Counted from the first letter of the stretch, positions 8,256 to 34,404 are shown. The stretch is DNA of 38,771 nt from Acutalibacteraceae bacterium (GCA_045540835.1 JAZQHX010000318.1:1-38771); one strand, 5' to 3'. Notes: generated by a model not told the origin, from the letters alone. A program made the numbers and translations.

Positions 8256-8257
8256 TT

Positions 8258-11235: not shown

Positions 11236-11241
11236 ATTTGT

Positions 11242-11270
11242 ATTATAACACATTACGTGTGAGGTGTCAA
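11242..11270 (-). promoter_or_regulatory. Consensus extended -10 promoter for the antisense RNA
   Basis: Minus strand: TTGACA (11270-11265), 17-nt spacer, TGtTATAAT (hexamer 11247-11242). Confidence 0.6.
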
Positions 11271-11350
11271 ACAGTAATTTTCTTTGATTTCTTTTCTAGT
11301 TGCTTTTTTGTTGCCTTTGGTATATAATTGTCGCAAAAGGTGGGTTTTGA

Positions 11351-11528: not shown

Positions 11529-11557
11529 TTGACAAAAGAGATAAAATATCATATAAT
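11529..11557 (+). promoter_or_regulatory. Consensus sigma-A promoter P1 (operon 1)
   Basis: TTGACA (11529-11534), 17-nt spacer, TATAAT (11552-11557). Confidence 0.7.
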
Positions 11558-11656
11558 AATTATGTTCTAAGGTTTGATTTAACTCCCGTTTAATCGGGCG
11601 TTTGTTTGAGTTAAGAGGTCGGATTTATCCTGTTAGGATAAGTCCGCTTTTTTGTT
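11552..11656 (+). repeat. Conserved leader, copy 1 (partner at 20839-20943)
   Basis: Manual alignment gives 103/105 identical positions. Both mismatches (11632, 11634) fall in the loop of terminator T1. Contains a nested stem TTAACTC..CCCG-TTTAAT-CGGG..GAGTTAA. Confidence 0.85.
11617..11653 (+). terminator. Leader terminator T1 (copy 1)
   Basis: About 11-bp stem CGGATTTATCC/GGATAAGTCCG followed by TTTTTT. Confidence 0.7.
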
Positions 11657-15541: not shown

Positions 15542-16720
15542 ATGAAATTTACCGTAAAAAGAACCAAGATGCTTGATGCCATGAAAACGGTTTTAGCCGT
15601 TGTACCGGATAAAAGCTTAATTGAAGAAATCAGAGGTGTACTTTTCACCGTGAACGCAGGAACGGGAACGGTAAATGTTGCCGGTACTGACCTTCAGACA
15701 TGGATTGAAAAAAGAGTTCCGTGTGAGCATATAAGCGAGGATGGGGAATTGGTATTAAAGCCCATAGTATCGGATATGCTCCGTCTTATGTCGGGGGAAA
15801 CAGTAGAATTTGAGCAAACAGCGGGCGCACTCCGAATTACATGCGGCAGTACGGTATATGACGTTCCGTATATTGATGCTGCGAGTTTTCCAAAATGCAG
15901 TATCAAATATCCCGAAAATACAATACGCATACAGGGTATTAACTCCCTTATTAAGCGTACTGTATTTGCTGCAGAGGGTAAAACTGACGATAAAAACCGT
16001 GTGAAAATGCAGTTTGTCAAGCTTACCTTTAAAGGCGGTAATTCCTATGCTGAAGCAACAAACGGAAACTGTACGGCAATTTCTGCTTCTCTTCACTGCG
16101 CAGATGGTAATCTATCGCTTATCGTGCACGAAAAAGCACTGCAAATACTGTCTAAAATTGTTTCGCCAGATGATGAGATATATGTCGGCTCTGAAGGTAA
16201 GATAGCAGTATTTATGCGGCCCGATACCATGTTTATAACCCTGCTCCATACAGGCGATTATGTTGAGGGCAGCAAGATAATGTCCCGACTCAAAAGCGAG
16301 TACGGAGCAATAACGGATACCCGTAAAATGGCTGACCTTTTAGAGAATGCAACCTCACTTTTCAGGCCTACGGATGACCAATGTATAAACATTAGCATAC
16401 GTGGCGGAAAAATAACTGCAAGGGGGCTTACAAGTGTAGGCAGGAGTGAAGCATCCATTGATGCAACACATACTGTAGACACAGCGGAAGAGGGCTTTAA
16501 TTATAAGCCTAAACTTCTTCTTGATTGCTTAAAGCATTCAACAGGACCACTCAGGATTTCAATGGACAAGAGAGGTTTTTTAATGTTTGAGGCTAATCAA
16601 AGCAGATTTCTTGTATGTCCGCGCCGAGAGGTGCAAATCAAAAAGGAAGAGCCTAAAAAGGCGGCAAAACCCAAGACCAGAAAGACAAAGGCAAAGACCG
16701 CACAACCTGCAGCGGCTTAA
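15542..16720 (+). CDS. DNA polymerase III beta sliding-clamp homolog with a basic K/P/A tail
   Basis: 392 aa. The N-terminus MKFTVKRTKMLDAMKTVLAVVPDKS...GTDLQTWIE follows the DnaN pattern and the length fits three clamp domains. It carries an extra KKEEPKKAAKPKTRKTKAKTAQPAAA tail. Confidence 0.7.
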   Translation: MKFTVKRTKMLDAMKTVLAVVPDKSLIEEIRGVLFTVNAGTGTVNVAGTDLQTWIEKRVPCEHISEDGELVLKPIVSDMLRLMSGETVEFEQTAGALRITCGSTVYDVPYIDAASFPKCSIKYPENTIRIQGINSLIKRTVFAAEGKTDDKNRVKMQFVKLTFKGGNSYAEATNGNCTAISASLHCADGNLSLIVHEKALQILSKIVSPDDEIYVGSEGKIAVFMRPDTMFITLLHTGDYVEGSKIMSRLKSEYGAITDTRKMADLLENATSLFRPTDDQCINISIRGGKITARGLTSVGRSEASIDATHTVDTAEEGFNYKPKLLLDCLKHSTGPLRISMDKRGFLMFEANQSRFLVCPRREVQIKKEEPKKAAKPKTRKTKAKTAQPAAA

Positions 16721-16735: not shown

Positions 16736-18100
16736 ATGTTAAGAGATAAAATTAACGCAATAATATCCGAGGTTAACTCACAGCTTGCTGAAAGGGAGGA
16801 GCTTGTATATACCATAGCTTTAGCCCTTTTAACAAGAAAAAACCTGTTTGTTCTCGGCGACCCCGGACAGGCAAAATCTCAGGCTATAGACAGCTTCCGT
16901 TCTCATATACGGGATGCCAGACAGTTTGAGATTCTTATGAGCAAGGGTATAGACCAAGAACAGCTTTTCGGACGTCTTGACCTTGCAAGCATCATTCCGG
17001 GACATGTATCAGGCTCGGTATTAAATGATGATGAGGGCTATAAGCAGCTTTCTTTTGAGCTTGAGTGTGTACTGCGTGATGCTGCGGGCAATACCGATTG
17101 CGCTCAGTATTTTAACTCAATTCAGGTCAAACGGGAAAGGCTTGAGGAATACAGAAAGGCACTTGCCGAAATAAAGGGAAATGCTCCGCAGATTATTACT
17201 GCAGGGAAAATTCCCGATAGCCATATTTGTTTCCTTGATGAAATATTTAAGGCAAATGACGGCGTGCTTAACAGTCTTCTTAAAGCCCTAAACGAGCGCA
17301 CCTATACAAATGAGGGCGTTGTGGTAAATATCCCCGTTATCAGCTTTTTCTCGGCATCCAATGAAATACCCAATTTCAACAATCCCGAGGAAAAGTCATT
17401 ACGGGCATTATATGACCGTTTTGATTTTAAGGTGTTTACCCGAAATGTTGAGGCAAAGCAAAATCGAATGGATATACTGCGTAAAAAACAGGGCGGACAA
17501 GCGACAACAACCGTTACATACATTACCCTTGAAGAGCTTGCCGAGATGCAAAAGGCAGTAAGTGAGGTAAAGGTACCTGACAGCATCAATGAGCTTGCAG
17601 ACAATATTTTATGTGAGCTTCGCCGCAAGGATATATCTGTCAGCGACCGTACCTATTTTAACTTTGCGCCTGTTGTGCAGGCTAATGCATACCTTTGCGG
17701 CAGAGATACCGTAAAGCCTGAAGATATGAAGGCTCTTATCAATTATTTGTGGAATAAGCCCCACGAGTATGCGGTTGTAGAGCAAACAATATCGAGACTT
17801 ACGGAAAATCCCCTCGGAGATAAGCTTGATAAACTTTTAGCTGAAGCATTTGAGCATAAAAAGAACTTCGATGCTGCGACAGATAAGCTTCAGGCTTTGG
17901 TAACATTCAGAAAGAATCTTGTTAAGGTTTATATTGAAGCCGAAAAGCTAAAAGACGGATTGACAGAGGGCGATGCCGCAATAAGTGCAGTTGATGGTAT
18001 GATTTCGTCGCTTGAAGCTTTAAGTAAAGAGGCGCATGACAATACCGGATATACCTATTTGCCGCTTTCGGAACTAAAAGCGTTTTTCGCTGTAAAATAA
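16736..18100 (+). CDS. MoxR-class AAA+ ATPase, RavA-like
   Basis: 454 aa. Walker A LGDPGQAKS and Walker B/sensor FLDEIFKANDGVLNSLLKALNER closely follow the RavA pattern (GPPGIAKS; FLDEIWKA..ILNTLL.AINER). Confidence 0.8.
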   Translation: MLRDKINAIISEVNSQLAEREELVYTIALALLTRKNLFVLGDPGQAKSQAIDSFRSHIRDARQFEILMSKGIDQEQLFGRLDLASIIPGHVSGSVLNDDEGYKQLSFELECVLRDAAGNTDCAQYFNSIQVKRERLEEYRKALAEIKGNAPQIITAGKIPDSHICFLDEIFKANDGVLNSLLKALNERTYTNEGVVVNIPVISFFSASNEIPNFNNPEEKSLRALYDRFDFKVFTRNVEAKQNRMDILRKKQGGQATTTVTYITLEELAEMQKAVSEVKVPDSINELADNILCELRRKDISVSDRTYFNFAPVVQANAYLCGRDTVKPEDMKALINYLWNKPHEYAVVEQTISRLTENPLGDKLDKLLAEAFEHKKNFDAATDKLQALVTFRKNLVKVYIEAEKLKDGLTEGDAAISAVDGMISSLEALSKEAHDNTGYTYLPLSELKAFFAVK

Positions 18101-19067: not shown

Positions 19068-20612
19068 ATGAGAAATCGTAATATTTTCAGAGATTTTGGC
19101 GAAGCAGATAACTGGCTTAACAGCCACCTGCTTACAAATCGGAACCCTATAACAGATAGGCTTTTTCAATCAACAAGGCTTACCGACCTTATCTACTCGG
19201 GACTTTCCTTTGAGGATGTGTTCTATAACACTGAAAACCTCAAATTCCCTGTAAATACTGAAAGAATATCGCAAGATATGTTTGGAGCATTGTTTTCGCC
19301 GGTTATAAGGAAAAACGATAACGAATCACTTTTCAGGCGGGAAAGAATGTTCAATAAGCCCCTTATGGACAGAGTGCTTCGGGATGATAGGTTTGATACC
19401 CTTAAATCCCTTTGCGAAGATAAGGAAATGACAAGCTATGATGCTGCCTCGGTTTTTGCACATACCTTGCAGGAACTCCTAAACGAAAAGCCCTATGAGC
19501 CTGAAAGAAATTATCTTATTGTTATTAAAACGCTCGAAGGGCAAATCGAAGGCGCAATTGCTGAAATTCAGGCAATGAGAGCAGATAAGAAGATAAATCC
19601 CGATAGATATCTTGTTTTAGTTAATAAGATACGCGCAAAGCTTTCTCAGGTAAAGAATCTTGAGAAAAGGCTTAAAAAGGATGCTCTTATTTATATTCAA
19701 TCCATAGAAGAGGATATAAATATTGCCTTGGATACTGCAGTAAACCGTGCCGCTGAAACCCATAGCATAATGTCTGCTTGGGGAAATGACAGTGGTGAAA
19801 TGAAAAGCACACCCTTAAACCGTGACCTGCTTGACTATGTCAAAAAGAGTGAAGAACTCAGGCGCATAGCAGTGTTGCTTGGCCGATACCGTGAAATAAT
19901 TGCGGATAAGCGTAAAAACGGTTATGCATACGGGCTGGGAGAGAAGTATGACCTTACTACAGGAAACGATATAACTAACTGCCTGTCAAGTGAGTTAGCA
20001 CTCCTCGGAACACCCGAAACCGAAATTCTTTTTATGCGAAAATATGAGCAAAAAAGACTTCAGCAGTACCGTAAGCGCACGCAGGTTATAAAGGGTAAGG
20101 GAGATATGATTGTCCTTGTGGACGAAAGCTCCAGTACCCGAAGGGTTACAGGATGGGCAAAAGCGTTTACACTCGCTCTCTTGGATATTGCGGCACGTGA
20201 TAAACGCAAGTTTGCTGTGGTGCACTTTGCATCTGCAAGGGATATCAAGACTGATTTATTCGAGCCTGATAAATACACATCACAGGATGTAATGAAAGCC
20301 GCTGAACATTTTTGGGGCGGCGGTACAAATTTCGAAGCACCGTTTAAAGAGGCTATACGGCTTATGGAGAACGGATATGAAAATGCGGATATTACGATAA
20401 TAACCGATGGTGAATGTGAAATGTCCGACACTTTCTGCGAGGAGTTACATACCAAGCTTCAAAGCTATAAGGCTACCGTTACGGGAATTCTTTTAGATAA
20501 GGATGAGCCCTGCGGTACGGCGCTTGAGCCATTCTGCAATAAAATCTATCATTCGAAAGAGCTCACCGAAGATGAAATTGCAATAGATATCATCCAAGGA
20601 AAAGCTGCTTAA
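19068..20612 (+). CDS. von Willebrand factor A (VWA) domain protein, ViaA-like partner of the AAA+ ATPase
   Basis: 514 aa. The C-terminal VWA has MIDAS motif VLVDESSST, then GGGTNF and ITDGE. Confidence 0.75.
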   Translation: MRNRNIFRDFGEADNWLNSHLLTNRNPITDRLFQSTRLTDLIYSGLSFEDVFYNTENLKFPVNTERISQDMFGALFSPVIRKNDNESLFRRERMFNKPLMDRVLRDDRFDTLKSLCEDKEMTSYDAASVFAHTLQELLNEKPYEPERNYLIVIKTLEGQIEGAIAEIQAMRADKKINPDRYLVLVNKIRAKLSQVKNLEKRLKKDALIYIQSIEEDINIALDTAVNRAAETHSIMSAWGNDSGEMKSTPLNRDLLDYVKKSEELRRIAVLLGRYREIIADKRKNGYAYGLGEKYDLTTGNDITNCLSSELALLGTPETEILFMRKYEQKRLQQYRKRTQVIKGKGDMIVLVDESSSTRRVTGWAKAFTLALLDIAARDKRKFAVVHFASARDIKTDLFEPDKYTSQDVMKAAEHFWGGGTNFEAPFKEAIRLMENGYENADITIITDGECEMSDTFCEELHTKLQSYKATVTGILLDKDEPCGTALEPFCNKIYHSKELTEDEIAIDIIQGKAA

Positions 20613-20815: not shown

Positions 20816-20844
20816 TTGACAACACCTTAAAAATACAGTATAAT
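20816..20844 (+). promoter_or_regulatory. Consensus sigma-A promoter P2 (operon 2)
   Basis: TTGACA (20816-20821), 17-nt spacer, TATAAT (20839-20844). Confidence 0.7.
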
Positions 20845-20943
20845 AATTATGTTCTAAGGTTTGATTTAACTCCCGTTTAATCGGGCGTTTGTTTGAGTTA
20901 AGAGGTCGGATTTATCCTATAAGGATAAGTCCGCTTTTTTGTT
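20839..20943 (+). repeat. Conserved leader, copy 2 (partner at 11552-11656)
   Basis: 103/105 identical to copy 1. A second short conserved block TTAATAAACC(C)AA(R)CGG follows in both copies (11664-11681 / 20969-20985). Confidence 0.85.
20904..20940 (+). terminator. Leader terminator T1 (copy 2)
   Basis: Same stem as copy 1 with loop ATA instead of GTT, then TTTTTT. Confidence 0.7.
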
Positions 20944-20998
20944 ATCTGCCATAAGCAGATTAGTAAATTTAATAAACCAAACGGTAATTCCAAAGAAG

Positions 20999-21040
20999 GA
21001 CCGGCTTTCACTGTGCTCAGTTGAAGGTCGGTCTTTTTTT
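20999..21040 (+). terminator. Leader terminator T2 (copy 2)
   Basis: 12-bp stem GACCGGCTTTCA/TGAAGGTCGGTC (two G:T) followed by 7 T. Confidence 0.65.
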
Positions 21041-21075
21041 GTTTTACAAATAAAATACGAAAGGACAAAACCATC

Positions 21076-22392
21076 ATGAGCGAAAACAAAAACCCCTTCG
21101 GCGATTTTTTAGACCTAGGAGATAACGGTGACGTAGGCAATCTTTTTGCCGAACTGGACTTTCCTGAGACACCCGCCGAAAAGACAGAACCCCAAACCCC
21201 GGCGCAGACAGAAACTGCGTCAAATGAGCCTGCGAAGCAGGAAAGTAAGGCCGAAGTGAGCATAGCTGAGGGAAAGGCGGCACCTGCCGAAACAGCAGAC
21301 GTTGACCCCTTTGCCGCGGCACTTGCCAAAGCGCAGGAAGCCAGCAATCAAAGACTGGCAGAAAGCTTTGCTGCAAAACCTGCAGTTTTCACCTACGGCA
21401 AGGCAAAAGACCCTATAGAAGACAAGGATTGCACCTTTGAGGAGCTCCGCCAGAAGTATGAGGGAGATTTCCCTGAATTATCTGACGCCAAAAGAGTAAC
21501 ATGGACAGTTACTTACGGTAAATCCTCTAAAACCATAGCTAATCCCGGCTCGGACAGGGTATATGAAATTAAAGAGGAAATTGAAAAATCCAAGACCTTT
21601 CTCGATGGCATTAAAAAGGCAAAGAAGGATGAAGAGAAGAATCCTGAATGTATTATTAAGCCCAGCGTGAGAGCACAAAGCAAGGGTAAGATTATAAGAC
21701 TTCCCGAGTATAAGGATTTTCAGTTTACCGAATCTGATGCACGTGCATCGGATAAACCAATAGTTCTTCTCCCGTCGAAAGACGGGAGAATCTACCAAAT
21801 GCGAAAAACACCTGTAGGAGTGTTTACGGCTCCCGCTGAAAACATCAAGGAATTTGATGAAATTCAGTCCGGTTTTCATATGTGTATGCCTAAAATCCCA
21901 TTTAAAATATTTTTCTTTATACTGAACTTTTTCAGAGCAGTATCAGATAAATATGCATACGAGGCTTTGGCGCATATTCTTTATGATACCAACGAACAGC
22001 GGTATGTTGTAAAGATTCCAAAGCAGCGGGTGTCCCACGCAAGTGTAAACTCGGTTATGGATTCAGACTATCCCGACCACCTTATCCACGTTATGGATAT
22101 ACATTCCCATAACACAATGCCCGCAGAGTTTTCGGGTATTGATGATGACGACGAAAAGGCTACAAGGCTTTACGGAGTTATTGGCCGACTGGATAGGATA
22201 TTACCGGATATAAAGATCAGAGCAGGTTGCGCAGGCAGCTATATCTATCTTAAGCCCGAAGATATCTTTGATGTCGAGGATGCCGACCATCCTTATCCTA
22301 CAGAATGGGATGAGCAGATAGTAGCGATGGAAATGCCAAAATTTAAAGGCTTTTTTCCTAAAAGGCTGCGTGCAAAGGATGTGTATATATGA
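21076..22392 (+). CDS. JAB/MPN (JAMM) metallopeptidase-domain protein with a long low-complexity N-terminal region
   Basis: 438 aa. Exact JAMM motif H343-S-H345-x7-S353-x2-D356 (HSHNTMPAEFSGID, nt 22102-22143) with upstream Glu in AYEALAH. Residues 1-100 are E/A/P/T-rich. Confidence 0.75.
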   Translation: MSENKNPFGDFLDLGDNGDVGNLFAELDFPETPAEKTEPQTPAQTETASNEPAKQESKAEVSIAEGKAAPAETADVDPFAAALAKAQEASNQRLAESFAAKPAVFTYGKAKDPIEDKDCTFEELRQKYEGDFPELSDAKRVTWTVTYGKSSKTIANPGSDRVYEIKEEIEKSKTFLDGIKKAKKDEEKNPECIIKPSVRAQSKGKIIRLPEYKDFQFTESDARASDKPIVLLPSKDGRIYQMRKTPVGVFTAPAENIKEFDEIQSGFHMCMPKIPFKIFFFILNFFRAVSDKYAYEALAHILYDTNEQRYVVKIPKQRVSHASVNSVMDSDYPDHLIHVMDIHSHNTMPAEFSGIDDDDEKATRLYGVIGRLDRILPDIKIRAGCAGSYIYLKPEDIFDVEDADHPYPTEWDEQIVAMEMPKFKGFFPKRLRAKDVYI

Positions 22393-23189
22393 GGATGTCG
22401 AGAACCTCTCCCGTTAAAATTATTGTAATAGGAGCAGGCGGAACGGGCGGTTATGTTATACCGCACCTATACCGTTTGTCTTATGCTTTAAGACGGGATA
22501 TAAGAGTTATTATCTGCGATGGAGATTTGGTAGAGGAAAAGAACCTTATAAGGCAGAACTTTATTGCTCAGGACATCGGGAGAAATAAAGCGCAGGTACA
22601 GGCTGAACGGTATTCAGCGGCCTTTGGTATCGAGTGCGAATATATCCCGAGATATGTTGAGAGCGTAGAAAATCTTGCAAGTCTTGTAAGACCGGATTTC
22701 TATAAAGGCAATCAGCATATTGAAACGCAGGATGTTATCCTGCTCGGCTGTGTAGATAATAATAATTCCCGTCAGATTTGTCATAAAGTATTCGGCAAAC
22801 AAAAGGATATTGTTTACATAGATTCGGGCAACGGAGAGCATACCGGTCAGGTTGTATGCGGAGTAAGGCAAAAGGGAAAAACGGTATATAAATCGGTTTG
22901 TACGAAGTATCCTGATATGCGTAAAAAGACCGATAAATTACCTTCAGAGCTTTCCTGTGCAGAACGCAGCGTATCTGCTCCACAGAGCGTTACGGCAAAT
23001 TTAATGGCAGCAACTGCAGTTGTGAGCTTTCTTTACGATTTGCTTGTATGCGGAGAGCTTAAAACCGAATCGGTAACCTTTTCTTCAAAGCAGATAAATA
23101 TGCGCCCTGAGTTTGAAGAGCCGCCTAAACCAAAGGCGAAGACAAAGCCTAAAACCAAAGCAGCCAAGACTGCGAAACGAAAGGAGTAA
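22389..23189 (+). CDS. ThiF/MoeB/E1-like adenylyltransferase
   Basis: 266 aa with a 4-nt ATGA overlap with the JAB gene. Rossmann motif VIGAGGTGG and DGDLVEEKNLIRQNF (the DxDxV...NLxRQ motif of E1-like enzymes). Basic tail PPKPKAKTKPKTKAAKTAKRKE. Confidence 0.75.
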   Translation: MRMSRTSPVKIIVIGAGGTGGYVIPHLYRLSYALRRDIRVIICDGDLVEEKNLIRQNFIAQDIGRNKAQVQAERYSAAFGIECEYIPRYVESVENLASLVRPDFYKGNQHIETQDVILLGCVDNNNSRQICHKVFGKQKDIVYIDSGNGEHTGQVVCGVRQKGKTVYKSVCTKYPDMRKKTDKLPSELSCAERSVSAPQSVTANLMAATAVVSFLYDLLVCGELKTESVTFSSKQINMRPEFEEPPKPKAKTKPKTKAAKTAKRKE

Positions 23190-23192
23190 CCT

Positions 23193-23414
23193 ATGAAACA
23201 GCAAGAATTTATTGTTTCCTACGATAAGCAAAAATGCCGTATTAACGGTCAGACGGGTACGATTAAAACGGTCCGTATCGAAGAGGTATTACCTGATGGT
23301 ACTAAAAAGACCGTACATACCGATGTGCGTTATATCAGCAGCGGTAAACCTAATCCCTTAAGGAATCTTATAAGCATTATAAGTACACCTAAAAAGGATA
23401 GGAGAGCTGCCTGA
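23193..23414 (+). CDS. 73-aa protein of unknown function directly after the E1-like gene
   Basis: RBS AAGGAG. Predicted mostly beta and ends RRAA. No Gly-Gly terminus. Confidence 0.55.
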   Translation: MKQQEFIVSYDKQKCRINGQTGTIKTVRIEEVLPDGTKKTVHTDVRYISSGKPNPLRNLISIISTPKKDRRAA

Positions 23415-23839
23415 TGACATACGGATATTGGCGTCCCGTTTGTGCTGCAAAGCTTCCTGCCTGCGATGGATTTTTAATAAGCTCCAAGGCGATATATAAA
23501 TCGAATATTGATAAGGATTGGAATACCTTTTTAAATCAGCTTATTGCTGAGCTACAGAGCAGAGAACCAAGCCTTAAGCAAATATGCGATTGGAAGCTTT
23601 ACAGTGAGGAAGATAAACTGTTTGTGGTACTTAAAAATGAATCCGTGGATATTATCGTTGAGGATGTGCCGGGCTTTGTTGCAGTTTACGTTATTGTGCC
23701 AAAAGAGTGCAAAATTAAAAGAACAGCAAAAAAGCAGCATCCGAGATATACCGAAATTCTAAAAATGAGCCTTTCAAAGTTTTATAAAGGAAATATCTAT
23801 AAGAGAATAGATACCCGAAATATAGAGCTTGCAGGTTAA
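23414..23839 (+). CDS. Hypothetical protein
   Basis: 141 aa. Its ATG overlaps the upstream TGA by 1 nt. Ends ELAG. Confidence 0.55.
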   Translation: MTYGYWRPVCAAKLPACDGFLISSKAIYKSNIDKDWNTFLNQLIAELQSREPSLKQICDWKLYSEEDKLFVVLKNESVDIIVEDVPGFVAVYVIVPKECKIKRTAKKQHPRYTEILKMSLSKFYKGNIYKRIDTRNIELAG

Positions 23840-23883
23840 ACCGAGGTCGCAGTTAATGCGGTCTTTTTTATTTGGAGGAAAAT

Positions 23884-24939
23884 ATGAGAGTTAATTTTAA
23901 AAATCTTGTTCTTGAGGTAACGCGCAAATGTAATATGCAGTGTGCGCATTGTATGCGTGGTGATGCCGAGGATGTAGATATGTCTACCGATATGCTTCAA
24001 AAACTGTTTGAGCAGGTAGGGGACATTGAGCATATCTGTATAACGGGCGGAGAGCCTTCGCTTAATCCAACCGCTATACACTATATTGCATACTTCGCAC
24101 GAACAACCCTTTGCAATATTGGTTCATTCTTTTGTTCTACTAATGCTAAAGAATACAGCCCTGAATTTGTAAAGGCGTTAAACGAGCTGTATATGATGTG
24201 CGACCAAAAGGAAGAATGCACCCTTACTGTCAGTATCGACCAGTTCCACGCACCTGCAGATGAATACGCCCTTAAGATGTACAGAGGTCTCCCGTATTAT
24301 AAGGGGACTAAAGAAAAGGGCTTTATATCCCGCGGCTATATATTGTCCGAAGGCAGGGCAAATGAAAATAATCTTGGTAGATTTTCAATGCCCTTCAGCG
24401 AGCATTTGTATGATATTTCATTCCATGGAATTCGTATGAACGTAGGCGACAGGATATATGTAAATGCGCTTGGAGATATTTTGCTTGATGCCGATTTAAG
24501 CTATAAAAATCAGGAGAACGAGCGTATCGGTAATGTAATGGAAGATCCGTTATATTGCCTTTTTACCTCGAATTATTTTGAAATCCCTGACCATTGGTTT
24601 GAAAAGGGCAAAAAATGCTTTTACTGTGTGCACATTCACGCTGATGCCAACACAATCAGCGGTACAGAGGAGGATAGTCGTGTGTATTATACCGAGCCGC
24701 AGAAGGCTTCGGCGGCTTACCAGAGTGCACTTACGAATATACGCATAACTCCCGTAAGCCCTAAATACAGCAAAATACCCGACGATTTAAAAATGACCTT
24801 TGTACCGCTTGAAGTCGAGGATGACAGATGCATTGGCACAAAAATCAGGTATTCACTACCCGAAGATAAGCGTGAGAGGTATGTAACCATCGAAATACTT
24901 CGCTGTCCCTTAGAGGAGGGTTATTACGATGGAAAGTGA
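23884..24939 (+). CDS. Radical SAM enzyme with an unassigned C-terminal domain
   Basis: ORF trimmed to the ATG at 23884 (RBS GGAGGA). Contains CNMQCAHC (CxxxCxxC) and the ITGGEPSLNP SAM-binding motif. About 351 aa. Confidence 0.75.
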   Translation: MRVNFKNLVLEVTRKCNMQCAHCMRGDAEDVDMSTDMLQKLFEQVGDIEHICITGGEPSLNPTAIHYIAYFARTTLCNIGSFFCSTNAKEYSPEFVKALNELYMMCDQKEECTLTVSIDQFHAPADEYALKMYRGLPYYKGTKEKGFISRGYILSEGRANENNLGRFSMPFSEHLYDISFHGIRMNVGDRIYVNALGDILLDADLSYKNQENERIGNVMEDPLYCLFTSNYFEIPDHWFEKGKKCFYCVHIHADANTISGTEEDSRVYYTEPQKASAAYQSALTNIRITPVSPKYSKIPDDLKMTFVPLEVEDDRCIGTKIRYSLPEDKRERYVTIEILRCPLEEGYYDGK

Positions 24940-26311
24940 GCAAACCCTGTTTTGTTTAAGTGAGATATCTGATTCTAAGAGGTATCTTGAGACAATAGCA
25001 CCGCAGCTTTTAAAGCTTCGCCTACAGTACGAAAAATATAAAGGCAGCGGTCTTAAAGCAGAACAGGACAGCCTTAGCGAACTGTCTAAAACAGTAAAAA
25101 AGATATTACGACATTTTCCGTCTTTAATACAGCAGCTTAGTGAGCTTGGCGACAGTGCGACACTTGAAACTACCGAAAAAATGTATTCCGTTTTAAAAAA
25201 GTACGATTATCTCGGTGTTTCGGATTACACTCCGTTATGCAAAGCACTGCTTGTATTTGCCTCAAAGCTTCCAAGCAGAGAGGGTAATATCAATAAGGCT
25301 GCACTCGGGCATCTTATGAATCAGGTAAGGATTGGATATTTCCCAACCGATACTGAGCATGTAAAGCTTATAAAAAAGGCGGTAGTTTTCCCCGAAAACA
25401 AGGTTAATCTTATTGACCCTTGTTGTGGAGAGGGAATTGCCTTATCGCTTTTTGCTGAGGGAACAAACTCGGATACTTACGGTGTAGAGATAGATACAGT
25501 TAGGGCTGAAAATGCACAAAGCAGACTTAAAAGGGTAGGCTTTGGGAGCTTTTTTCATTCAAGAATAAGCAACAATGCTTTTCAGTGCCTTTTTCTGAAC
25601 CCGCCATATCTGTCGGCACCGAGTGAACACGGAAACCGAAGGCTTGAAAAAAGCTTTTTGGCAGACAGCTTAAGGCTGCTTGAGGATGGCGGACTCCTGA
25701 TATACATAATTCCGTATTACAGAGCCACAGCCGATGTTTGCAGGGTGCTATGCGAGTTCTTTTGCGACCTTAGTGTTTACCGCTTTACAGGCGATGAATT
25801 CGGCAAATTTAAGCAGGTAGTATTTCTTGGTAAAAAGATTCCAAGACGTGAGGCGGAAAAGCCTACCGAACGCCTGACCGAGCTTATGCTGTATCCGGAT
25901 AAAATACCTCCGCTGACTAGTGTTCGTGATGGTGTATATACACTCCCCGAAGCATCCAAGTCGGTAGATATTTTTAAAGGTGCAGTATTTAACGAAAAGG
26001 AGCTTGCCGAACAGCTTAAACGTTCCAACAGTATCGAGAGACTTTTCCCTATAAGCCGACTTGATAAATGTGAGCGTCAGCCACTATTGCCTCTGAACCT
26101 ATCTCAAATAGGTTTAGTTGGTGCCAGCGGTATGATGAATGGCCTTGTAAAATGCGATACTCCCCACATTATTAAGGGGCGAATCGTAAAGGAAAAGAAA
26201 AGCCGAGTAGGTCCTGAGGATGAGTACGGAAAAATCGAGCTTAAGGAGATAACCTCTAACAAACTAATATTTAATTTATTAACCCAGACCGGGTTTAAAT
26301 CACTCGGTTAA
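24929..26311 (+). CDS. N6-adenine-type DNA methyltransferase (orphan, no cognate nuclease seen)
   Basis: 460 aa. Motif I IDPCCGEGIAL and motif IV NPPY (FLNPPYL). The start overlaps the radical SAM gene by 11 nt. Confidence 0.7.
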   Translation: MESEQTLFCLSEISDSKRYLETIAPQLLKLRLQYEKYKGSGLKAEQDSLSELSKTVKKILRHFPSLIQQLSELGDSATLETTEKMYSVLKKYDYLGVSDYTPLCKALLVFASKLPSREGNINKAALGHLMNQVRIGYFPTDTEHVKLIKKAVVFPENKVNLIDPCCGEGIALSLFAEGTNSDTYGVEIDTVRAENAQSRLKRVGFGSFFHSRISNNAFQCLFLNPPYLSAPSEHGNRRLEKSFLADSLRLLEDGGLLIYIIPYYRATADVCRVLCEFFCDLSVYRFTGDEFGKFKQVVFLGKKIPRREAEKPTERLTELMLYPDKIPPLTSVRDGVYTLPEASKSVDIFKGAVFNEKELAEQLKRSNSIERLFPISRLDKCERQPLLPLNLSQIGLVGASGMMNGLVKCDTPHIIKGRIVKEKKSRVGPEDEYGKIELKEITSNKLIFNLLTQTGFKSLG

Positions 26312-26336: not shown

Positions 26337-26852
26337 ATGTTAAAACAACCCCGGAAATTAACAAATGAAGAGGCTGCTTTTGCGGCCGAAAATCACAGTA
26401 AAATATATGACTTTCTTTATGAAAACGGACTGTCTTGCGATGATTTTTATGATGTTGCCGTTTTCGGATATTTGAAAGCGGTGCAATTATATTTTGAGGG
26501 CGAAATGTCCTGCGATTTTATAGAAATTGCAGGTCGTGAGATGCTTTCTGCCTGCGTAAGCGCCGAAGAAGAAAATAGCCTTCTTGCCGAGCCTGCATCC
26601 TACCTTGAGGATACTATTGCAGATGCAAAATCTATTGCCGAAGAAGCAATAAAAGCGGTGGATTTAGATAATACACTGGCGAGCTTTTCGGCAAACGAAC
26701 AGCGTATCGCAAGGCTTGTTGTAAGCGGATATTCGGTAGAGGATATTGCCGATATTTTCGGTATGGGCACAGGTACTGTTACAAAACTTGTTTTGGATAT
26801 GTGCCGCAGACTTGAAGGTAACAGCTTTTCTCCCGTAATGATTGCAGCGTAA
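26337..26852 (+). CDS. Sigma-70-family / sigma region-4 HTH protein
   Basis: 171 aa. The C-terminal NEQRIARLVVSGYSVEDIADIFGMGTGTVTKLV fits a region 4.2 HTH, and the N-terminal half is region-2-like. Confidence 0.55.
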   Translation: MLKQPRKLTNEEAAFAAENHSKIYDFLYENGLSCDDFYDVAVFGYLKAVQLYFEGEMSCDFIEIAGREMLSACVSAEEENSLLAEPASYLEDTIADAKSIAEEAIKAVDLDNTLASFSANEQRIARLVVSGYSVEDIADIFGMGTGTVTKLVLDMCRRLEGNSFSPVMIAA

Positions 26853-26877
26853 AACACAAAAAAGAAAGGACGATTTT

Positions 26878-27369
26878 ATGTTCAACCCCATTTTATATTT
26901 AATAACCCTTTTTGAGCTTTTTATTGCAAGAAAAAGGGCAAAAGCGGCAAAAAATGCTATGAACCATAAAATAACAAAGACCCGCACCGACGCCGATGAG
27001 CTCGATAGGTGCTATGAGAACTTTCTCAAGAGAGCTAACCGTGAAGAAAAACTGGCGGTAAAGCTCAAGAGAATAAAGAACCAGAACACCGATTTTGCAA
27101 TTTTAAAGGTGTGTCTTAACCTTGGCGATGTAATGAAAAGCAAAGGAGCCGAAGGTCTTACAAAGCTTGATATTTCTACTGCCCTTACCCGTCATAAGCA
27201 CGGGGACTGGGGAGAGCAGGAGCGTAACCGCTGGATAGATAACAATATGGCAGTAATAGAAGGCACGGGCGTTATCTGTTCAAGATATAAATATCACGGC
27301 GGCGGAGCTTTCCTGATTAACACCGATATCCTGAACCATAAAACCAGAATATGTCTGGAGGGTGAATAA
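26878..27369 (+). CDS. Membrane-anchored protein with a C-terminal HGDWG...SRY motif
   Basis: ORF trimmed to the ATG at 26878 (RBS AAAGGAC). Has an N-terminal TM helix. The C-terminal RHKHGDWGE...NNMAVIEGTGVICSRY recalls a small family I remember from plasmids/ICEs, but I cannot name it. Confidence 0.4.
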   Translation: MFNPILYLITLFELFIARKRAKAAKNAMNHKITKTRTDADELDRCYENFLKRANREEKLAVKLKRIKNQNTDFAILKVCLNLGDVMKSKGAEGLTKLDISTALTRHKHGDWGEQERNRWIDNNMAVIEGTGVICSRYKYHGGGAFLINTDILNHKTRICLEGE

Positions 27370-27704
27370 TGAGCTTGAAACTGGATATCCCGCTTTTTAA
27401 GACAATCCTTATTGGAATTGATGAAGAAAGCGACAGATTTGAGCAAATGCTGAGCGCCAAAATGAAGCAGTATAAAGGCATTGAGTATATCAGAGATGCT
27501 GTGCTTCAGTCATTGCTAAACGGTGTAGAGGTCAGTGTCAGCGATTTAGACTTAGATGCTTTTGATATTGAGGATGTGTGGGAGTTTAATAGTTGCTACT
27601 ATGATTATTGTGATAATATGGGTTCTCTTCGCAGTCTTTCCTCACGCTTTATTGATTCCTGCAAGGAAACTGAGCCGAAACCCGTTGTGGCAAGCTTTAT
27701 TTGA
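27369..27704 (+). CDS. Hypothetical acidic protein
   Basis: 111 aa with RBS GGAGGG. D/E-rich. Confidence 0.5.
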   Translation: MSLKLDIPLFKTILIGIDEESDRFEQMLSAKMKQYKGIEYIRDAVLQSLLNGVEVSVSDLDLDAFDIEDVWEFNSCYYDYCDNMGSLRSLSSRFIDSCKETEPKPVVASFI

Positions 27705-27715
27705 GAGGTGCCATT

Positions 27716-28297
27716 ATGTCTAATAGAGATATAAGCGATATAGCTTTTGAGGATGTAATCGGGACATTAGCTATTGTAAAGCTTGTTTATGATGAAACAG
27801 GTATAAGGATGAATACTCAGTTAAACGAGTATTCGCTTTGCGAAACCTATTTTGAGGCATTGGATTATGCGGGAAACAGAGAGGAATCGGCAGATGATTA
27901 TTACGGCGGATATATAGATAAGTATTCCTTTGAATTCATGCCCCGCTATTATGAACTTTGCAAGGAATACGGGCGTATGAATAAAGTGAAATTCAGCAAA
28001 AATCCGTTTGTGCTGGAGGCTGCTCGACTTGTCAATTCTGAAATGAACGGAGTCGATAGTTACTGTATAAGCTGGTCTCTTTTTACCCCTAAAAGGATAG
28101 AAAAGAAAAAGTATCCTTGTCTTGCAATTTTCCTTGACCCTGAGTTCTTTCAGCCGATTCAGCTTGTTGAAGCCCTTTGTAATATCCGCGCATTTTACCG
28201 TGAGGGTGTTATAAGACTTGAAAAGGCGATAAATGCGCAAAAGAACAACATAATCGTAATGCCGGACAAAACTGCCGAAAGGAAGAAAGCCGCATGA
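27716..28297 (+). CDS. Hypothetical protein
   Basis: ORF trimmed to the ATG at 27716 (RBS GAGAGGTG). 193 aa, ends KKAA. Confidence 0.5.
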   Translation: MSNRDISDIAFEDVIGTLAIVKLVYDETGIRMNTQLNEYSLCETYFEALDYAGNREESADDYYGGYIDKYSFEFMPRYYELCKEYGRMNKVKFSKNPFVLEAARLVNSEMNGVDSYCISWSLFTPKRIEKKKYPCLAIFLDPEFFQPIQLVEALCNIRAFYREGVIRLEKAINAQKNNIIVMPDKTAERKKAA

Positions 28298-28947
28298 GAA
28301 ATGAAGTATTATTACATATCTTTGATGATGGCAACGTTCATGTTGAAATAACCGAAGGTGTTAAGGTAACCACAAAATCCATTGCGGTAGATACCCTTGT
28401 GAACTGTATTAAAAGCAGTCTCAGGAGTACTGCAATCCAATCGGGCTTGCTTCCGAGAAATGTAGTCGCAACCGCATTTTCTACCGATGGTTCATACAGG
28501 CGAGTTATAGTTGAGCTTGCATCAGAACGTGCGACGATTACCTACGGAAACACCGAGTATGAAAACTTTCCGCTACCGAGAATGCTGTTCGCTTTCAAAG
28601 TGGCGCAAAATGGCAGGGTGTCCGGTGTGGAGGTTGCAGTATGCGGACAGGGCAAGCTGACCCCCGAAACACCGCTGTATTATTATCCGTTTTCAAATGT
28701 AAATGGTTTTAATATGTGCACAGGGGGAAATCCGCTGCCTAAAATTGAGAGTTTAAGCCAACTTGAAAATCTTCCTGATTTTATCGTATCCATTCCCGAT
28801 AATGATGATTATTACAAGGAAGATCACAACTCTTTAAATCTCGGGCACCGTGACCTTTTAGAGCATCTTCGGGACAAGGACAGACAGTACTATTATGACC
28901 GTATTTTAGTACCGATGAAAAACCAAACCTTACAGAATTTCCTATAA
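28294..28947 (+). CDS. Hypothetical protein; possible E2/UBC-like fold (speculative)
   Basis: 217 aa. FPLPRMLFAF (92-101) and YPFSNVNGFNMCTGG (131-145, Cys142 at nt 28717-28719) loosely echo the UBC YPxxPP..F and HPN-x7/8-C layout. Confidence 0.3.
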   Translation: MRNEVLLHIFDDGNVHVEITEGVKVTTKSIAVDTLVNCIKSSLRSTAIQSGLLPRNVVATAFSTDGSYRRVIVELASERATITYGNTEYENFPLPRMLFAFKVAQNGRVSGVEVAVCGQGKLTPETPLYYYPFSNVNGFNMCTGGNPLPKIESLSQLENLPDFIVSIPDNDDYYKEDHNSLNLGHRDLLEHLRDKDRQYYYDRILVPMKNQTLQNFL

Positions 28948-28959: not shown

Positions 28960-29814
28960 ATGAACAAAGAACAAGAAGCAAAATTACAAGAGCCTTTTAC
29001 CGCCGCTGAAATAGACTGGCGTGTAATAAGGACAACCAAGGACAAAACCAAAGGCCAGGTAGCCGCTTATGTGGACTCAAGAGCCATTCAAAACAGGCTT
29101 GACAGTGTAGTAGGTAAGGATAACTGGCAAAACGATTTTATAACTGTGTCGGGGGCGGACAATAATGCTACCGCACACATTTGTAAGCTGAGCATTTACT
29201 ATCCTGAAAGAGGTGAGTGGATAGTAAAAAGCGATGGTGCAGGCTGTACTGATATAGAACCCATAAAAGGCGGTCTTTCAAACGCTTTTAAGCGTGCTGC
29301 ATCTATGTGGGGAATGGGCAGATACCTTTATGAGCTTAAAAATATATGGGTAATGCTCGATGAATATAAATGCATTGCAAAACACGAAAAGCCAAACCTT
29401 GATTCGATTTATAACGAGTTTTTAGCAAAGCTTTTAAAATCATCAGCCAAAGGCGCACAAAAAGGTAGTGCTCAGCAAACCGCACCGACGGTCAGAAAGC
29501 CCAATACGGCGCCTTCTGCCGATAGCAAGCCAAAGCCGAACGGTGAAGTTCCTGCAGGAAGATTTGCGGGTAACTCTGCTCCAAAACCTTCGGGATTTGA
29601 TTTTTACAACATAACCGAACTCAAGGTTATGAAGGATAATTCACAAACAAAGGTTACGATGCAGTCACCTGACGGTGAAGTAATTGTAGGCTATATGAAG
29701 GGAGTGCCTGAACTCAGGAAAGGACAAACAATCTCCAAACCTAAAATTGTTGTCAAAAACGCTCCCGGAATAGGAAATTACAATATAATCCAAGGCTATG
29801 ATTTAGCCGCATAA
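28960..29814 (+). CDS. Rad52/Rad22-type single-strand annealing protein
   Basis: 284 aa. Hallmark motif GGLSNAFKRAASMWGMGRYLYEL, followed by a low-complexity linker and a C-terminal beta-rich domain. Confidence 0.75.
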   Translation: MNKEQEAKLQEPFTAAEIDWRVIRTTKDKTKGQVAAYVDSRAIQNRLDSVVGKDNWQNDFITVSGADNNATAHICKLSIYYPERGEWIVKSDGAGCTDIEPIKGGLSNAFKRAASMWGMGRYLYELKNIWVMLDEYKCIAKHEKPNLDSIYNEFLAKLLKSSAKGAQKGSAQQTAPTVRKPNTAPSADSKPKPNGEVPAGRFAGNSAPKPSGFDFYNITELKVMKDNSQTKVTMQSPDGEVIVGYMKGVPELRKGQTISKPKIVVKNAPGIGNYNIIQGYDLAA

Positions 29815-32263: not shown

Positions 32264-33400
32264 TTGAAAAACTATGTCTATATTGATGTAGTTGATACAG
32301 CATTAGTCTGCGGTCTGGACATTAAGCCCGGAACTCTCGGAAACGAAGAGGTAGAGGCGAGATGCCCATACTGTAATGACTATAAATACCGTATGTACCT
32401 GAGCCATAAAAGAGATAACGCCGCCTTCTGGTGCCACAATTGCGGTACCGGAGGCAGCGCTGTCACCCTGTATGCTGATTTTAATCCCGAAGGCAAGCGC
32501 CTTACTCATTATGCGGCATACAAGGAGCTTTTAGCCCATCCTGATATTCGTTGTGATGAGGTGCCGATAGAGAATAAAAAATACTCTACTGGAAAAATAA
32601 GACCATTGCATGAGCGCAGTGAGATTTACCTTGAATTTCTAAAGCTTTTGGATCTTGAGGAAAGGCATTATACTAATCTTTTCAACAGAGGACTAAGCGA
32701 TGAAATGATAAAGGGTAATATGTACCGAAGCATACCTACAGATTACTTTAAACAGCAAAAGGTACTAAATGAACTCACAAAACGCTATGACCTTTCGGGA
32801 ATTCCCGGGTTTTATACCAAAAACAACAAATGGAAGATAGCAAACTGCAAGCATAGCGGTATCCTTATTCCCGTTGCCGATAAAGATAATATGATACAGG
32901 GCTTACAGATTCGTCTTGATGAGCCGCCGCCAAAGATAATCGAAATGCCTGACGGCAGTAAAGCCGAAAAGGCAGGAGACCGTTTCAGATGGTTTTCCAC
33001 AGGCGGTAATTATTATGAAAACGGAACGGGAATATCCAGTTATATTCACATAGTAGGGGACCAGAGCTCCGACACTGTGTATATAACCGAGGGCCCGATG
33101 AAAGCAGATGTAGCAAGCTATCTTTCGGGAGGTAAACTCTTTATAGGGCTTACGGGCGTACAGAATGTACGGTATTTAGCCGATGTTGTATCAACCCTTA
33201 AACCTCGGCGAATAGTGGAATGTATAGATATGGACTGTAGAACTAACCCCCATGTGCAAAGAGCACAATCTAAAATACGGTCAATATGTGCGACGCTTTG
33301 TGAAGAATATAAGCTATTCACATGGCCTATTGAACAAAAAGGAATTGATGATTACCTCTTGTTTGAAAAGCTTAAGCGTGAGCATGGATTGGCAGCTTAA
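32264..33400 (+). CDS. DnaG-type primase (CHC2 zinc finger + Toprim)
   Basis: 378 aa with an uncertain TTG start. Contains CPYC...FWCHNCGTGGSAVTLY, NLFNRGLSDEMI, Toprim Glu in ITEGPMKAD and the acidic CIDMDC. Confidence 0.7.
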   Translation: MKNYVYIDVVDTALVCGLDIKPGTLGNEEVEARCPYCNDYKYRMYLSHKRDNAAFWCHNCGTGGSAVTLYADFNPEGKRLTHYAAYKELLAHPDIRCDEVPIENKKYSTGKIRPLHERSEIYLEFLKLLDLEERHYTNLFNRGLSDEMIKGNMYRSIPTDYFKQQKVLNELTKRYDLSGIPGFYTKNNKWKIANCKHSGILIPVADKDNMIQGLQIRLDEPPPKIIEMPDGSKAEKAGDRFRWFSTGGNYYENGTGISSYIHIVGDQSSDTVYITEGPMKADVASYLSGGKLFIGLTGVQNVRYLADVVSTLKPRRIVECIDMDCRTNPHVQRAQSKIRSICATLCEEYKLFTWPIEQKGIDDYLLFEKLKREHGLAA

Positions 33401-33426
33401 ATTTGAAAACTGAAAGGACAAATAAT

Positions 33427-34404
33427 ATGAAGAATATGGAAAGCTTTATGGCTGTAAATGAGAATACCGATGGTATTATAGGTAAATTCTTCTATTACTC
33501 AACCTCTAAAATCCTGATTCGCAAGGATGAGTTTATAAATGTCGGTATGTCGTTCGGACTGCCGAAATTTAAACCCGCCAAGGAATCAAAATCCGGCGCT
33601 TACAGAAACGCCACTACGGCAATAAAAGACAGGGTAACTGTAAAGGATGCTACGGGCACCCACGTGTACCGTATTTATTGCCGAGATAACAAAAAGGAAA
33701 CGGAAAATGCAGAGCGTATTTGCAGGGAGCTTGTAAAGGAAACACTTGAGTCCCGCACCAATGAATACAAGAAGCTTGCTAACATCATATTTGATAAGCA
33801 AACCGAAACGGTTTACTTTGAAAACGAGGTTTTTGACCCCGATGTTGATGTTACAGCTTACTGTGAAAAGGCGAGGGAGCTCTTTGAGCTTTACTGTGAC
33901 TGCTACACCTCTGACCAGGTAGATGCGGTTATAACCGATATGCTTGACCGTATGCAAGCAAATGAAATAAGCATACACGGAAAGCTTTTCTTTATTCCAA
34001 ACCCCAATCTGCCGTTGCTTAACGTGCTTGAGGATTATATTGAGGCGATAAGCCAGCATAACCTCAGTGACGGTCTTGTGATGAGCAACAGTATGTTTGT
34101 TGTTGATGACGAAAAGCAGAGAAAGAAGATGACCGAAGAGTTTTATGCGAACTATAAGCGGGATATTGAATTTTACCAGAAACGCATACAAAACTTTATT
34201 GAAAACGGTTGTGATTCAAAAACGGTTATTGACCGTTGGCTTAAAAAGGTCAGCGACCTGCAGAAGAAAAAGGCTTTATATGAGGATGTGCTAAAGCAAC
34301 AGCTTGATGCACTGAACTCCGATTATGCTGTTCTTCAGATGCAGTCGCAGGAGCTTTTAGTAAGGAGCAATGGCGGACACGCACAAATGCAATTTGCAGC
34401 ATAA
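33427..34404 (+). CDS. Hypothetical protein (last gene of operon 2)
   Basis: ORF trimmed to the ATG at 33427 (RBS GAAAGGAC). 325 aa, ends QFAA. No family recognised. Confidence 0.55.
   Translation: MKNMESFMAVNENTDGIIGKFFYYSTSKILIRKDEFINVGMSFGLPKFKPAKESKSGAYRNATTAIKDRVTVKDATGTHVYRIYCRDNKKETENAERICRELVKETLESRTNEYKKLANIIFDKQTETVYFENEVFDPDVDVTAYCEKARELFELYCDCYTSDQVDAVITDMLDRMQANEISIHGKLFFIPNPNLPLLNVLEDYIEAISQHNLSDGLVMSNSMFVVDDEKQRKKMTEEFYANYKRDIEFYQKRIQNFIENGCDSKTVIDRWLKKVSDLQKKKALYEDVLKQQLDALNSDYAVLQMQSQELLVRSNGGHAQMQFAA

Follow-up and report, generated by a model that had tools for sequence, protein, structure and literature searches.

Which protein do a JAB metallopeptidase and an E1-like adenylating enzyme act upon when they are encoded side by side on a mobile element none of whose listed open reading frames (ORFs) ends in Gly-Gly? 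This question is raised by a stretch of 38,771 nucleotides (nt) from an Acutalibacteraceae bacterium (GCA_045540835.1 JAZQHX010000318.1:1-38771), a gut Clostridia genome. The whole stretch, hereafter the window, consists of chromosome and an integrated element of approximately 26 kb; all coordinates refer to it, and the genes of the cassette, with their promoter, leader, terminator-like hairpin and the E2 gene, lie on the plus strand. A prediction made earlier from the sequence (the original prediction) had recognized a JAB-E1 pair in the first two genes of the second operon of this element and had taken it for a module for conjugation of a ubiquitin-like protein (Ubl), one that lacked a ubiquitin-like partner and whose substrate was open. 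Our analysis supports the assignment to Ubl conjugation and offers a candidate for the substrate: the cassette is probably a complete system of the PRTRC, or type 6d, kind, with its tag concealed inside the JAB gene, where it corresponds to residues 101-204 of the JAB protein.

The JAB gene and its ubiquitin-like domain

The first gene of the cassette (21076-22392) encodes a protein of 438 amino acids and shares the four nucleotides ATGA with the E1 gene that follows (22389-23189), an overlap noted originally. Judged by their relatives, by the ThiF score of the second and by the gene order kept elsewhere, both genes are real, and their motifs did not arise by chance. At E <= 0.001 the database search gave 1,292 relatives of the JAB protein, the best 120 of which are 351-524 amino acids long, and the AlphaFold2 model of the full-length protein reached a mean predicted local distance difference test score (pLDDT) of 80, with values above 90 over most of residues 90-400. 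Its C-terminal part (21901-22392) is a JAB/MPN+ metallopeptidase domain. The exact JAMM motif reported previously was found at nt 22102-22143 (H343-S-H345-x7-S353-x2-D356), and its H343, H345, S353 and D356 as well as the upstream catalytic glutamate E296 (nt 21961-21963) are invariant in 57 aligned homologues. The nearest structure detected with Foldseek is a bacterial Ubl deubiquitinase of the BilC type (8tyx_B, E = 1e-5), followed by Rpn11 and AMSH, and the best NCBIfam match is PRTRC_A (3.8e-11).

Of the extension ahead of the peptidase, residues 1-100 had been described as an acidic low-complexity segment, in agreement with our model, where residues 14-73 are predicted to be disordered (pLDDT below 50), and residues 100-150 as a possible small beta-alpha-beta unit. 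The latter turned out to be part of a strongly conserved domain that comprises residues 101-204 (21376-21687) and in which 33 of 104 alignment columns are invariant. In the AlphaFold2 model, computed with the 57 homologues, residues 103-198 have pLDDT values above 90 and follow the order beta-beta-alpha-beta-beta-(three short helices)-beta, which as modelled is that of a beta-grasp with a helical insert (residues 162-188); modelled alone, the domain reached a pLDDT of 89.5 and a predicted template modelling score (pTM) of 0.77. The top fold matches in the PDB are almost all ubiquitin-like, namely PB1, FERM F1, RA, ubiquitin and Elongin B.

The tag protein of canonical PRTRC cassettes, PRTRC-C, of which we took sequences from annotated plasmids, shares with this domain the pattern F-x-Y-x-G ... 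(S/T)-x-(E/D)-x-(V/L)-R-x-x-Y-x-x-x-(Y/F)-P-E-L. With single sequences, the hhalign comparison of the domain with one PRTRC-C protein was too weak (4.9% probability), and the match became convincing only with deeper alignments, that is with 18 sequences (66%, E = 5.5e-5) and, against eight PRTRC-C proteins, with 122 sequences including bridging relatives (90.8%, E = 1.2e-6). The claim that a ubiquitin-like partner is missing had to be abandoned: residues 101-204 of the JAB protein are a predicted beta-grasp domain that is probably homologous to PRTRC-C and ends in Lys-Gly. The observation behind that claim, that no ORF of the element ends in Gly-Gly, is true for 22 of the 22 listed ORFs, yet it is misleading, because the tag ends in Lys-Gly and sits inside the JAB gene.

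The end of the tag domain, K203-G204, is the predicted site of JAB cleavage. Both residues are invariant in the 57 aligned homologues, the KG motif recurs in 119 of 120 relatives, and canonical PRTRC-C proteins end in GTKG, GDKG or GRKG followed by the stop codon, or in AKG with a short extension. The boundary is fixed at this position by two natural gene splits. On the Clostridium baratii plasmid pNPD11_1, a stand-alone tag homologue of 140 amino acids is encoded between E2 and E1 and ends in NKG-stop; its layout is the same, with an N-terminal motif, a low-complexity stretch and then the tag domain. At the metagenomic locus L021, a separate tag gene of 182 amino acids ends in ...IRAKTKG-stop, and the JAB gene starts 5 nt after it, with the residue that comes next after G204 in the fused form. 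The same fusion as in the window is found in the JAB protein of a B. cereus plasmid, which reads ...GAKG at the junction. From these comparisons we predict that tag and peptidase are made from the first gene as a single pre-protein and that the mature tag ends with Gly204. The pre-protein would consist of the tag (residues 1-204) and the C-terminal JAB metallopeptidase, which would cut after Gly204, either in cis or in trans, and in this way produce a free tag with a C-terminal glycine.

Alternatively, the beta-grasp domain might stay on the JAB protein uncleaved, like the UBL domains of some eukaryotic deubiquitinases, while the E1 and E2 enzymes use a ThiS- or MoaD-type protein of the host or nothing at all. 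That the fusion is the dominant form among the best 120 of the 1,292 relatives would be in line with this, and cassettes using endogenous ThiS/MoaD proteins were considered by Iyer et al. (PMC1779556). However, the stand-alone versions end exactly at KG, K203-G204 are invariant despite their location in a lower-confidence linker of the AlphaFold2 model, and processing of a fused tag by a JAB domain has a precedent in Type I Bub systems (PMC11601596). We consider a permanently attached domain very unlikely, and we would give equally little chance to an E1 and E2 that rely on a host protein or on none.

The N-terminal part of the tag (residues 1-100; 21076-21375) contains the motifs NPxxDFL and LFAxxxF, the acidic disordered stretch and a helix (residues 78-99). 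M1, N9, F11, L12 and F24 are nearly invariant, and the stand-alone tags of C. baratii and L021 are likewise preceded by similar N-terminal motifs and a disordered stretch. Between tag and peptidase, a linker and a beta-rich domain (residues 205-275; 21688-21900; strands 213-215, 229-233, 239-244 and 249-253 in the AlphaFold2 model) occupy the position of JAB-N in the JAB proteins of type 6d systems, an alpha+beta domain with a conserved Arg and Trp (PMC1779556). In the domain described here (213-253), R243 is invariant and there is no invariant Trp; the PRTRC_A model matches only from residue 257. A lone Ubl-JAB gene, without E1, E2 or the rest of the element, was observed among ordinary chromosomal genes at locus L017 (10001-11437), and this solitary copy may be a remnant.

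The E1- and E2-like enzymes

The second gene (22389-23189) encodes an E1-like adenylating enzyme of 266 amino acids with a Lys-rich tail. As described originally, the enzyme is compact and carries the motif GAGGTGG (residues 15-21, nt 22431-22451); DGDLVEEKNLIRQNF, the DGD...NLIRQ motif, is also present, and so is the Asp motif CVDNN (nt 22749-22763). A Pfam ThiF domain covers residues 8-247 (4e-17), there is no rhodanese domain, and the best NCBIfam match is PRTRC_ThiF (3.7e-31). Cys190 lies in the sequence LSCAE (nt 22956-22958), and a Cys in the context S-C-(S/A) is common to the E1 enzymes of Cupriavidus, Parabacteroides, Alteromonas, B. cereus and C. baratii. Sequence comparison gave no match of any family member to a solved structure; the E1 comes closest, in the PDB, to UBA3, the subunit of the NEDD8 E1 (6e-4, Rossmann part only). 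A tblastn search of plasmids with the E1 yielded 584 records; at one end of their range are the annotated PRTRC cassettes known from Pseudomonas, Cupriavidus and Alteromonas, at the other cassettes without annotation on plasmids of the B. cereus group and C. baratii, and a search of genome contigs returned only two close loci.

At its end (23120-23189) the E1 has a basic, Lys/Pro-rich tail of about 25 residues, PPKPKAKTKPKTKAAKTAKRKE, which could bind nucleic acid; similar basic tails are found in relatives. At locus L006 (11509-12405) the E1 is 298 amino acids long: the N-terminal half of p73, the small protein encoded next to the E1 (see below), is deleted there, and the C-terminal half including RRAA is fused in frame.

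An E1-E2 fusion had been reported to be absent, and among the listed ORFs of the element E1 and E2 are indeed separate genes. The E2-like conjugating enzyme (28294-28947, 217 amino acids) is encoded 4.4 kb downstream of the E1, by an ORF which the original prediction had proposed to include in a search for beta-grasp and UBC folds; it matches Pfam Prok-E2_D (1.2e-6; 28.8 bits at a cut-off of 25) and NCBIfam PRTRC_B (1.9e-6). The predicted catalytic residue, Cys142 (28717-28719), is part of the sequence M-C-T-G, and C142 and G144 (C-x-G) are invariant in an alignment with canonical PRTRC-B proteins and the E2 proteins of B. cereus and Parabacteroides. The position of the E2 gene is kept in all related loci. 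With these enzymes, the C-terminal glycine of the tag would be adenylated by the E1 using ATP, and a thioester would then probably form on Cys190; the E2 would take over the tag on Cys142 and attach it to lysines of target proteins. The JAB peptidase can probably also remove the tag again.

Enzymes of this kind might also serve sulfur transfer. The E1 would then convert Gly204 of the tag, exposed by a JAB peptidase acting like Mec+, into a thiocarboxylate (as in ThiS, MoaD and CysO), and the sulfur would feed the modification of a nucleic acid or a cofactor by the radical-SAM protein (23872-24939) and the DUF6094 methyltransferase (24929-26311) encoded directly after the cassette. The presence of these two genes fits such a role, and so do the membership of the E1 in the ThiF/MoeB superfamily, PAPS-reductase-like genes near the cassettes of Alteromonas and B. 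cereus, and the known sulfur operons that combine JAB with ThiS/MoaD (PMC1779556). However, sulfur carriers need no E2, whereas an E2 with an invariant Cys occurs in every relative of the cassette; neither a rhodanese, cysteine desulfurase or PP-loop gene nor ThiS/MoaD, thiamine or molybdopterin genes were found in the element; and the radical-SAM gene is truncated at locus L003 and absent at locus L024, both of which retain Ubl, E1 and E2. In addition, the E1 scores 108 bits with PRTRC_ThiF and 40 or less with ThiF/MoeB models, so that we see no E1 of the sulfur-transfer or microcin type, the finding which the original prediction had named as speaking against itself. Given that the E2 with its invariant Cys is never missing and that the element contains no sulfur-handling genes, it is highly improbable that the tag is a sulfur carrier, and just as improbable that the radical-SAM protein and the methyltransferase draw sulfur from it.

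Comparison with known systems

Among the systems with which the JAB-E1 pair had been compared, the PRTRC cassettes of plasmids fit well, with PRTRC_A, PRTRC_ThiF and PRTRC_B as the best NCBIfam matches of JAB, E1 and E2. Type 6d systems comprise a small Ubl whose C-terminal Gly is conserved, a JAB protein with JAB-N, an E1 and an alpha-helical protein, and their E2 lacks the classical His (Iyer, Burroughs, Aravind 2006, PMC1779556). The cassette described here has a beta-grasp whose C-terminal Gly is conserved (a domain of a larger protein instead of a gene product of its own), an intact JAMM site, a Prok-E2_D protein in which the Cys is conserved and the classical His is lacking, and an E1 without rhodanese. 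It resembles PRTRC and type 6d systems in its four parts, in the conserved Lys-Gly end of the tag, in the extra domain ahead of JAB, in the C-x-G active site of an E2 without the classical His and in its carriage by a mobile element. In contrast to PRTRC, JAB carries the tag as an N-terminal fusion, and the tag has an N-terminal extension of approximately 100 residues and contains a helical insert in the beta-grasp. The E2 gene is 4.4 kb away from the E1 gene, unlike in the canonical order E-C-F-B-A-ThiF, and the host belongs to the Clostridia and carries an integrated element with a serine recombinase, whereas PRTRC is known from proteobacterial plasmids. ParB, PRTRC-E and PRTRC-F, too, were not found: among the element ORFs that were compared with Pfam, none gave a match to ParB; the N-terminal 100 residues of the tag were rejected as a fused PRTRC-E (hhalign probability 0.4%); and p198 (27701-28297), compared with PRTRC-F because it precedes the E2 as F does, was rejected likewise (0.1%).

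Of the Ubl operon families predicted in 2006, type II CBASS (antiphage signalling systems based on cyclic oligonucleotides), Bil and Bub have been worked out experimentally. In Type I Bub, the Ubl-E2 fusion is cut by a JAB domain immediately behind a conserved Gly, and in this way the tag is exposed (PMC11601596). The cassette in the window shares with Type I Bub a tag made as a fusion and the need for a JAB cut after a conserved Gly (PMC11601596), but Bub fuses the tag to E2 (BubAB) and JAB to E1 (BubCD), whereas here the tag is fused to JAB. Furthermore, the E1 and E2 of Bub lack the catalytic Cys and use oxyesters, while both Cys residues are conserved here, and DUF6527/BubE is absent. Similarly, the antiphage system Bil (BilABCD) has separate Ubl, E2, JAB and E1 activities, and the JAB domain has its nearest structure in a BilC-type protein. 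The E1 of Bil, however, consists of an inactive and an active adenylation domain in tandem and a Cys domain, in contrast to the single adenylation domain of the 266-residue E1 described here (PADLOC match to BilD, E = 0.022), and a defence-island context is lacking. With type II CBASS (Cap2, an E2-E1 fusion, and Cap3, a JAB protein) the cassette has in common that JAB is paired with E1 and E2 chemistry; it differs in its separate E1 and E2 and in its dedicated tag. The PADLOC models for E1-E2 matched weakly, 3.8e-7 at best, and only the Rossmann part of the E1, and no CD-NTase or effector was found with PADLOC and Pfam. As PADLOC gave only weak, partial matches to Cap2-type E1-E2 models and BilD, we rejected a defence-system label. 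Eukaryotic ubiquitin precursors (polyubiquitin and fusions of ubiquitin with ribosomal proteins) are also made as fusions, which a deubiquitinase cuts after the terminal Gly; here the fusion partner is the deubiquitinase itself, and the end is Lys-Gly instead of Gly-Gly.

Several points weigh against the assignment to PRTRC or type 6d and against the proposed function. The NCBIfam scores remain below the respective cut-offs, with 108.3 bits versus 144.75 for PRTRC_ThiF (TIGR03736; 40.3 bits for ThiF, TIGR02356), 42.9 versus 101.8 for PRTRC_A and 27.4 versus 131.45 for PRTRC_B, the latter two being nevertheless the best or only credible NCBIfam matches of their proteins; the cassette is therefore a diverged relative of PRTRC and not a canonical member. 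For the tag domain, Pfam and NCBIfam models gave no match in hmmscan, the fold matches have E values of 0.08-1 (best 0.08; none <= 0.001) at template modelling scores (TM-scores) of 0.4-0.6, and the PRTRC-C profile match does not extend beyond the initial 35 columns, which correspond to the first two strands and the first helix, a restriction that is due to the helical insert. With regard to the E2, the downstream His of type 6d, found as F-(T/S/N)-H in canonical and B. cereus proteins, faces Ile, Leu or Phe here, in an alignment which at about 20% identity is insecure; and since the E2 gene is not adjacent to the E1 gene, the case for their functional coupling comes from conserved co-occurrence only. 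Moreover, cleavage, adenylation, thioester relay and conjugation are steps that we infer from the domain architecture, homologies, conserved residues and natural gene splits observed in these sequences. Nor did the literature searched contain an experimental study of PRTRC or type 6d systems. Taking all this into account, we consider it probable that the ~26-kb integrated element carries a complete, diverged Ubl conjugation system of the PRTRC or type 6d kind.

The element, its Ala-Ala ends and the possible role of tagging

The element is flanked by sugar-metabolism genes, AraC-type genes and HPr (1-8.1 kb and 34.6-38.8 kb). Its left end adjoins a tRNA-Pro (GGG) gene (8180-8255), next to which a large serine recombinase is encoded on the minus strand (8400-10118); no exact repeat >= 10 bp was found between the tRNA-Pro side and the right end (34.4-34.6 kb). 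The genes of operon 1 are those for an SNF2-like helicase, a sliding clamp, SSB, a MoxR ATPase and a VWA protein. In operon 2, the cassette is followed by the radical-SAM and DUF6094 methyltransferase genes mentioned above, a helix-turn-helix (HTH)/sigma-like protein and three unknown proteins, and the distal part encodes the E2-like protein, Rad52, an SMC-like ATPase, DUF3854 and DUF6744. This gene order is kept in six other contigs. It is the same in contigs of Ruminococcaceae and other gut Clostridia, with JAB proteins about 50-70% identical, and also at locus L024 from IMG/VR, where JAB is 39% identical.

Some features of the element and its relatives were noticed in passing. A bpMoxR-type AAA ATPase (16736-18100) is paired with the VWA/ViaA-like protein (19068-20612), with SSB between them, in the window and in all relatives. 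The gap between the VWA gene and the promoter of the Ubl-JAB gene contains no cargo in the window and is a cargo hot-spot in relatives, with an AAA_14/DUF4143 ATPase on the minus strand around 8000-9450 at loci L006, L016 and L018 and a PhdYeFM/ParE toxin-antitoxin pair in L016 (6626-7214). A small domain with the motif (H/Q)GDWG(E/N) ... WIITE.DRSATT and no Pfam match occurs in the window (26842-27369), in L021 (5708-5971), where it lies directly upstream of the stand-alone tag gene, and in L024 (13254-13817). A scan against PHROGs recognized only the E1, with a weak match, and the radical-SAM protein. Putative phage contigs from IMG/VR (L026 and L028-L033, around 8400-11300) show the canonical order helical protein, E2, JAB, E1; several of their E1 proteins end in ...YGKG or ...QANG and several JAB proteins in ...NG, ends that resemble the Lys-Gly of the tag.

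The first four genes of operon 2, encoding Ubl-JAB, E1 and two small proteins (p73 and p141), are bounded by a consensus promoter and by a terminator-like hairpin with a T-run (23843-23865), which closes the unit. The promoter-like site (20816-20844) consists of TTGACA, a spacer of 17 nt and TATAAT, that is 12 of 12 consensus positions, and both hexamers are invariant in five related loci. It is followed by a conserved 5' leader (20850-21075), in which a small hairpin is predicted along with two hairpins that resemble terminators and are each followed by a T-run (20907-20933 and 20997-21033; predicted energies -20 and -31 kcal/mol). When six loci were aligned, 75% of the leader columns were identical and 8 pairs had compensatory changes; Rfam contains no match. 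The promoter and the leader's first ~110 nt recur almost unchanged upstream of the helicase gene of operon 1 (11530-11650); the two operons therefore have one regulatory module in common.

The two small proteins described in the original prediction were recovered as ORFs of 73 and 141 amino acids ending in RRAA and ELAG, respectively. The former, p73 (23193-23414), is a small, fast-evolving protein with an invariant C-terminal RR(A/T)A. It was considered as the tag and rejected: only two relatives were found in a word-indexed search, nothing but RR(A/T)A is constant, the N-terminal half is deleted in L006 and the gene is absent from L024, and the N-terminal 45 residues look all-beta by eye, with no helix between strands 2 and 3. 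The latter, p141 (23414-23839), is conserved, with 101 relatives nearly all of 141 amino acids; it has no credible Pfam match and no match in NCBIfam, PHROGs or the PDB. A role of p141 as tag, E2 or E3 is unsupported, since only 73 of 86 relatives end in Gly, no Cys reaches 93% conservation and the gene is absent from L024. As L024 has lost p73, p141 and the radical-SAM gene and yet keeps Ubl-JAB, E1 and E2, these three genes are accessory.

A further peculiarity of the element concerns the ends of its proteins. Eight of 22 (clamp, VWA, p73, HTH, p198, Rad52, DUF3854 and DUF6744; ORFs 15542-16720, 19068-20612, 23193-23414, 26337-26852, 27701-28297, 28960-29814, 32264-33400 and 33403-34404) end in Ala-Ala-stop, with varied Ala codons, where 0.5% would be expected from the Ala content of the element (binomial P about 5e-13); the SMC-like protein ends in Ala-Ser. 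In relatives, the E1 and the SMC-like protein often end in Ala-Ala as well, and the tails are conserved per orthologue group in seven loci (L001, L003, L006, L016, L018, L019 and L024). Neither the ORFs on either side of the element in the window nor the chromosomal genes at L017 have them, and they are rare or absent in the cassettes of B. cereus, C. baratii, Alteromonas, Cupriavidus and Parabacteroides. In bacteria, a C-terminal Ala-Ala is a degradation signal for ClpXP, as in the ssrA tag and the Ala-tails made by RqcH, and a signal of this type is the simplest reading of the ends observed here. A functional coupling to the Ubl machinery, in which these proteins are substrates of E1 and E2 via their own C-termini or carry ClpXP signals tuned by tagging, is unlikely; if it were true, the proteins with which the mobile element replicates and recombines would be subject to a ubiquitin-and-protease-like circuit run by the element itself.

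A precedent for conjugation via such ends exists in type II CBASS, in which Cap2 conjugates a protein that is not a Ubl, the CD-NTase, via its C-terminus. By analogy, E1 and E2 might act mainly, or also, on the Ala-Ala ends of the element proteins, and the beta-grasp would then be a docking or regulatory domain. The abundance of these ends, their maintenance per orthologue group even where JAB is only 39% identical, the AA ends of several E1 orthologues and the constancy of just the RRAA end in p73, which is encoded beside the E1 and whose end survives half-deletion and fusion to the E1, would all be compatible with this explanation. However, a ClpXP degradation signal explains the tails without an E1, and the tails are absent from the cassettes of B. 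cereus, C. baratii, Alteromonas and Parabacteroides and from most phage cassettes, which have the same enzymes. In addition, the cassette has a PRTRC-C-type tag with a Lys-Gly end, the very point at which natural gene splits fall; because a tag of the canonical type was found, conjugation as in CBASS is the less economical explanation, and we regard it as quite improbable.

The diverged PRTRC or type 6d system is in constant company of a sliding clamp, SSB, a helicase, Rad52, an SMC-like protein and DUF3854, which suggests that it controls the replication or establishment of the element itself or acts on host factors that oppose it. Its reconstitution should be straightforward, as the predicted cut site after Gly204, Cys190 of the E1, Cys142 of the E2 and a self-processed tag are all specified. 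The JAB protein has more than 1,200 relatives, and the variant is abundant in human-gut Clostridia. For the annotation of such loci it follows that the lack of a small ORF ending in Gly-Gly does not prove a JAB-E1 cassette to be tagless. Finally, the cassette is located among replication and recombination genes and outside any defence island, so that mobile elements might, as eukaryotic cells do, tag proteins in order to control factors of DNA replication or repair.

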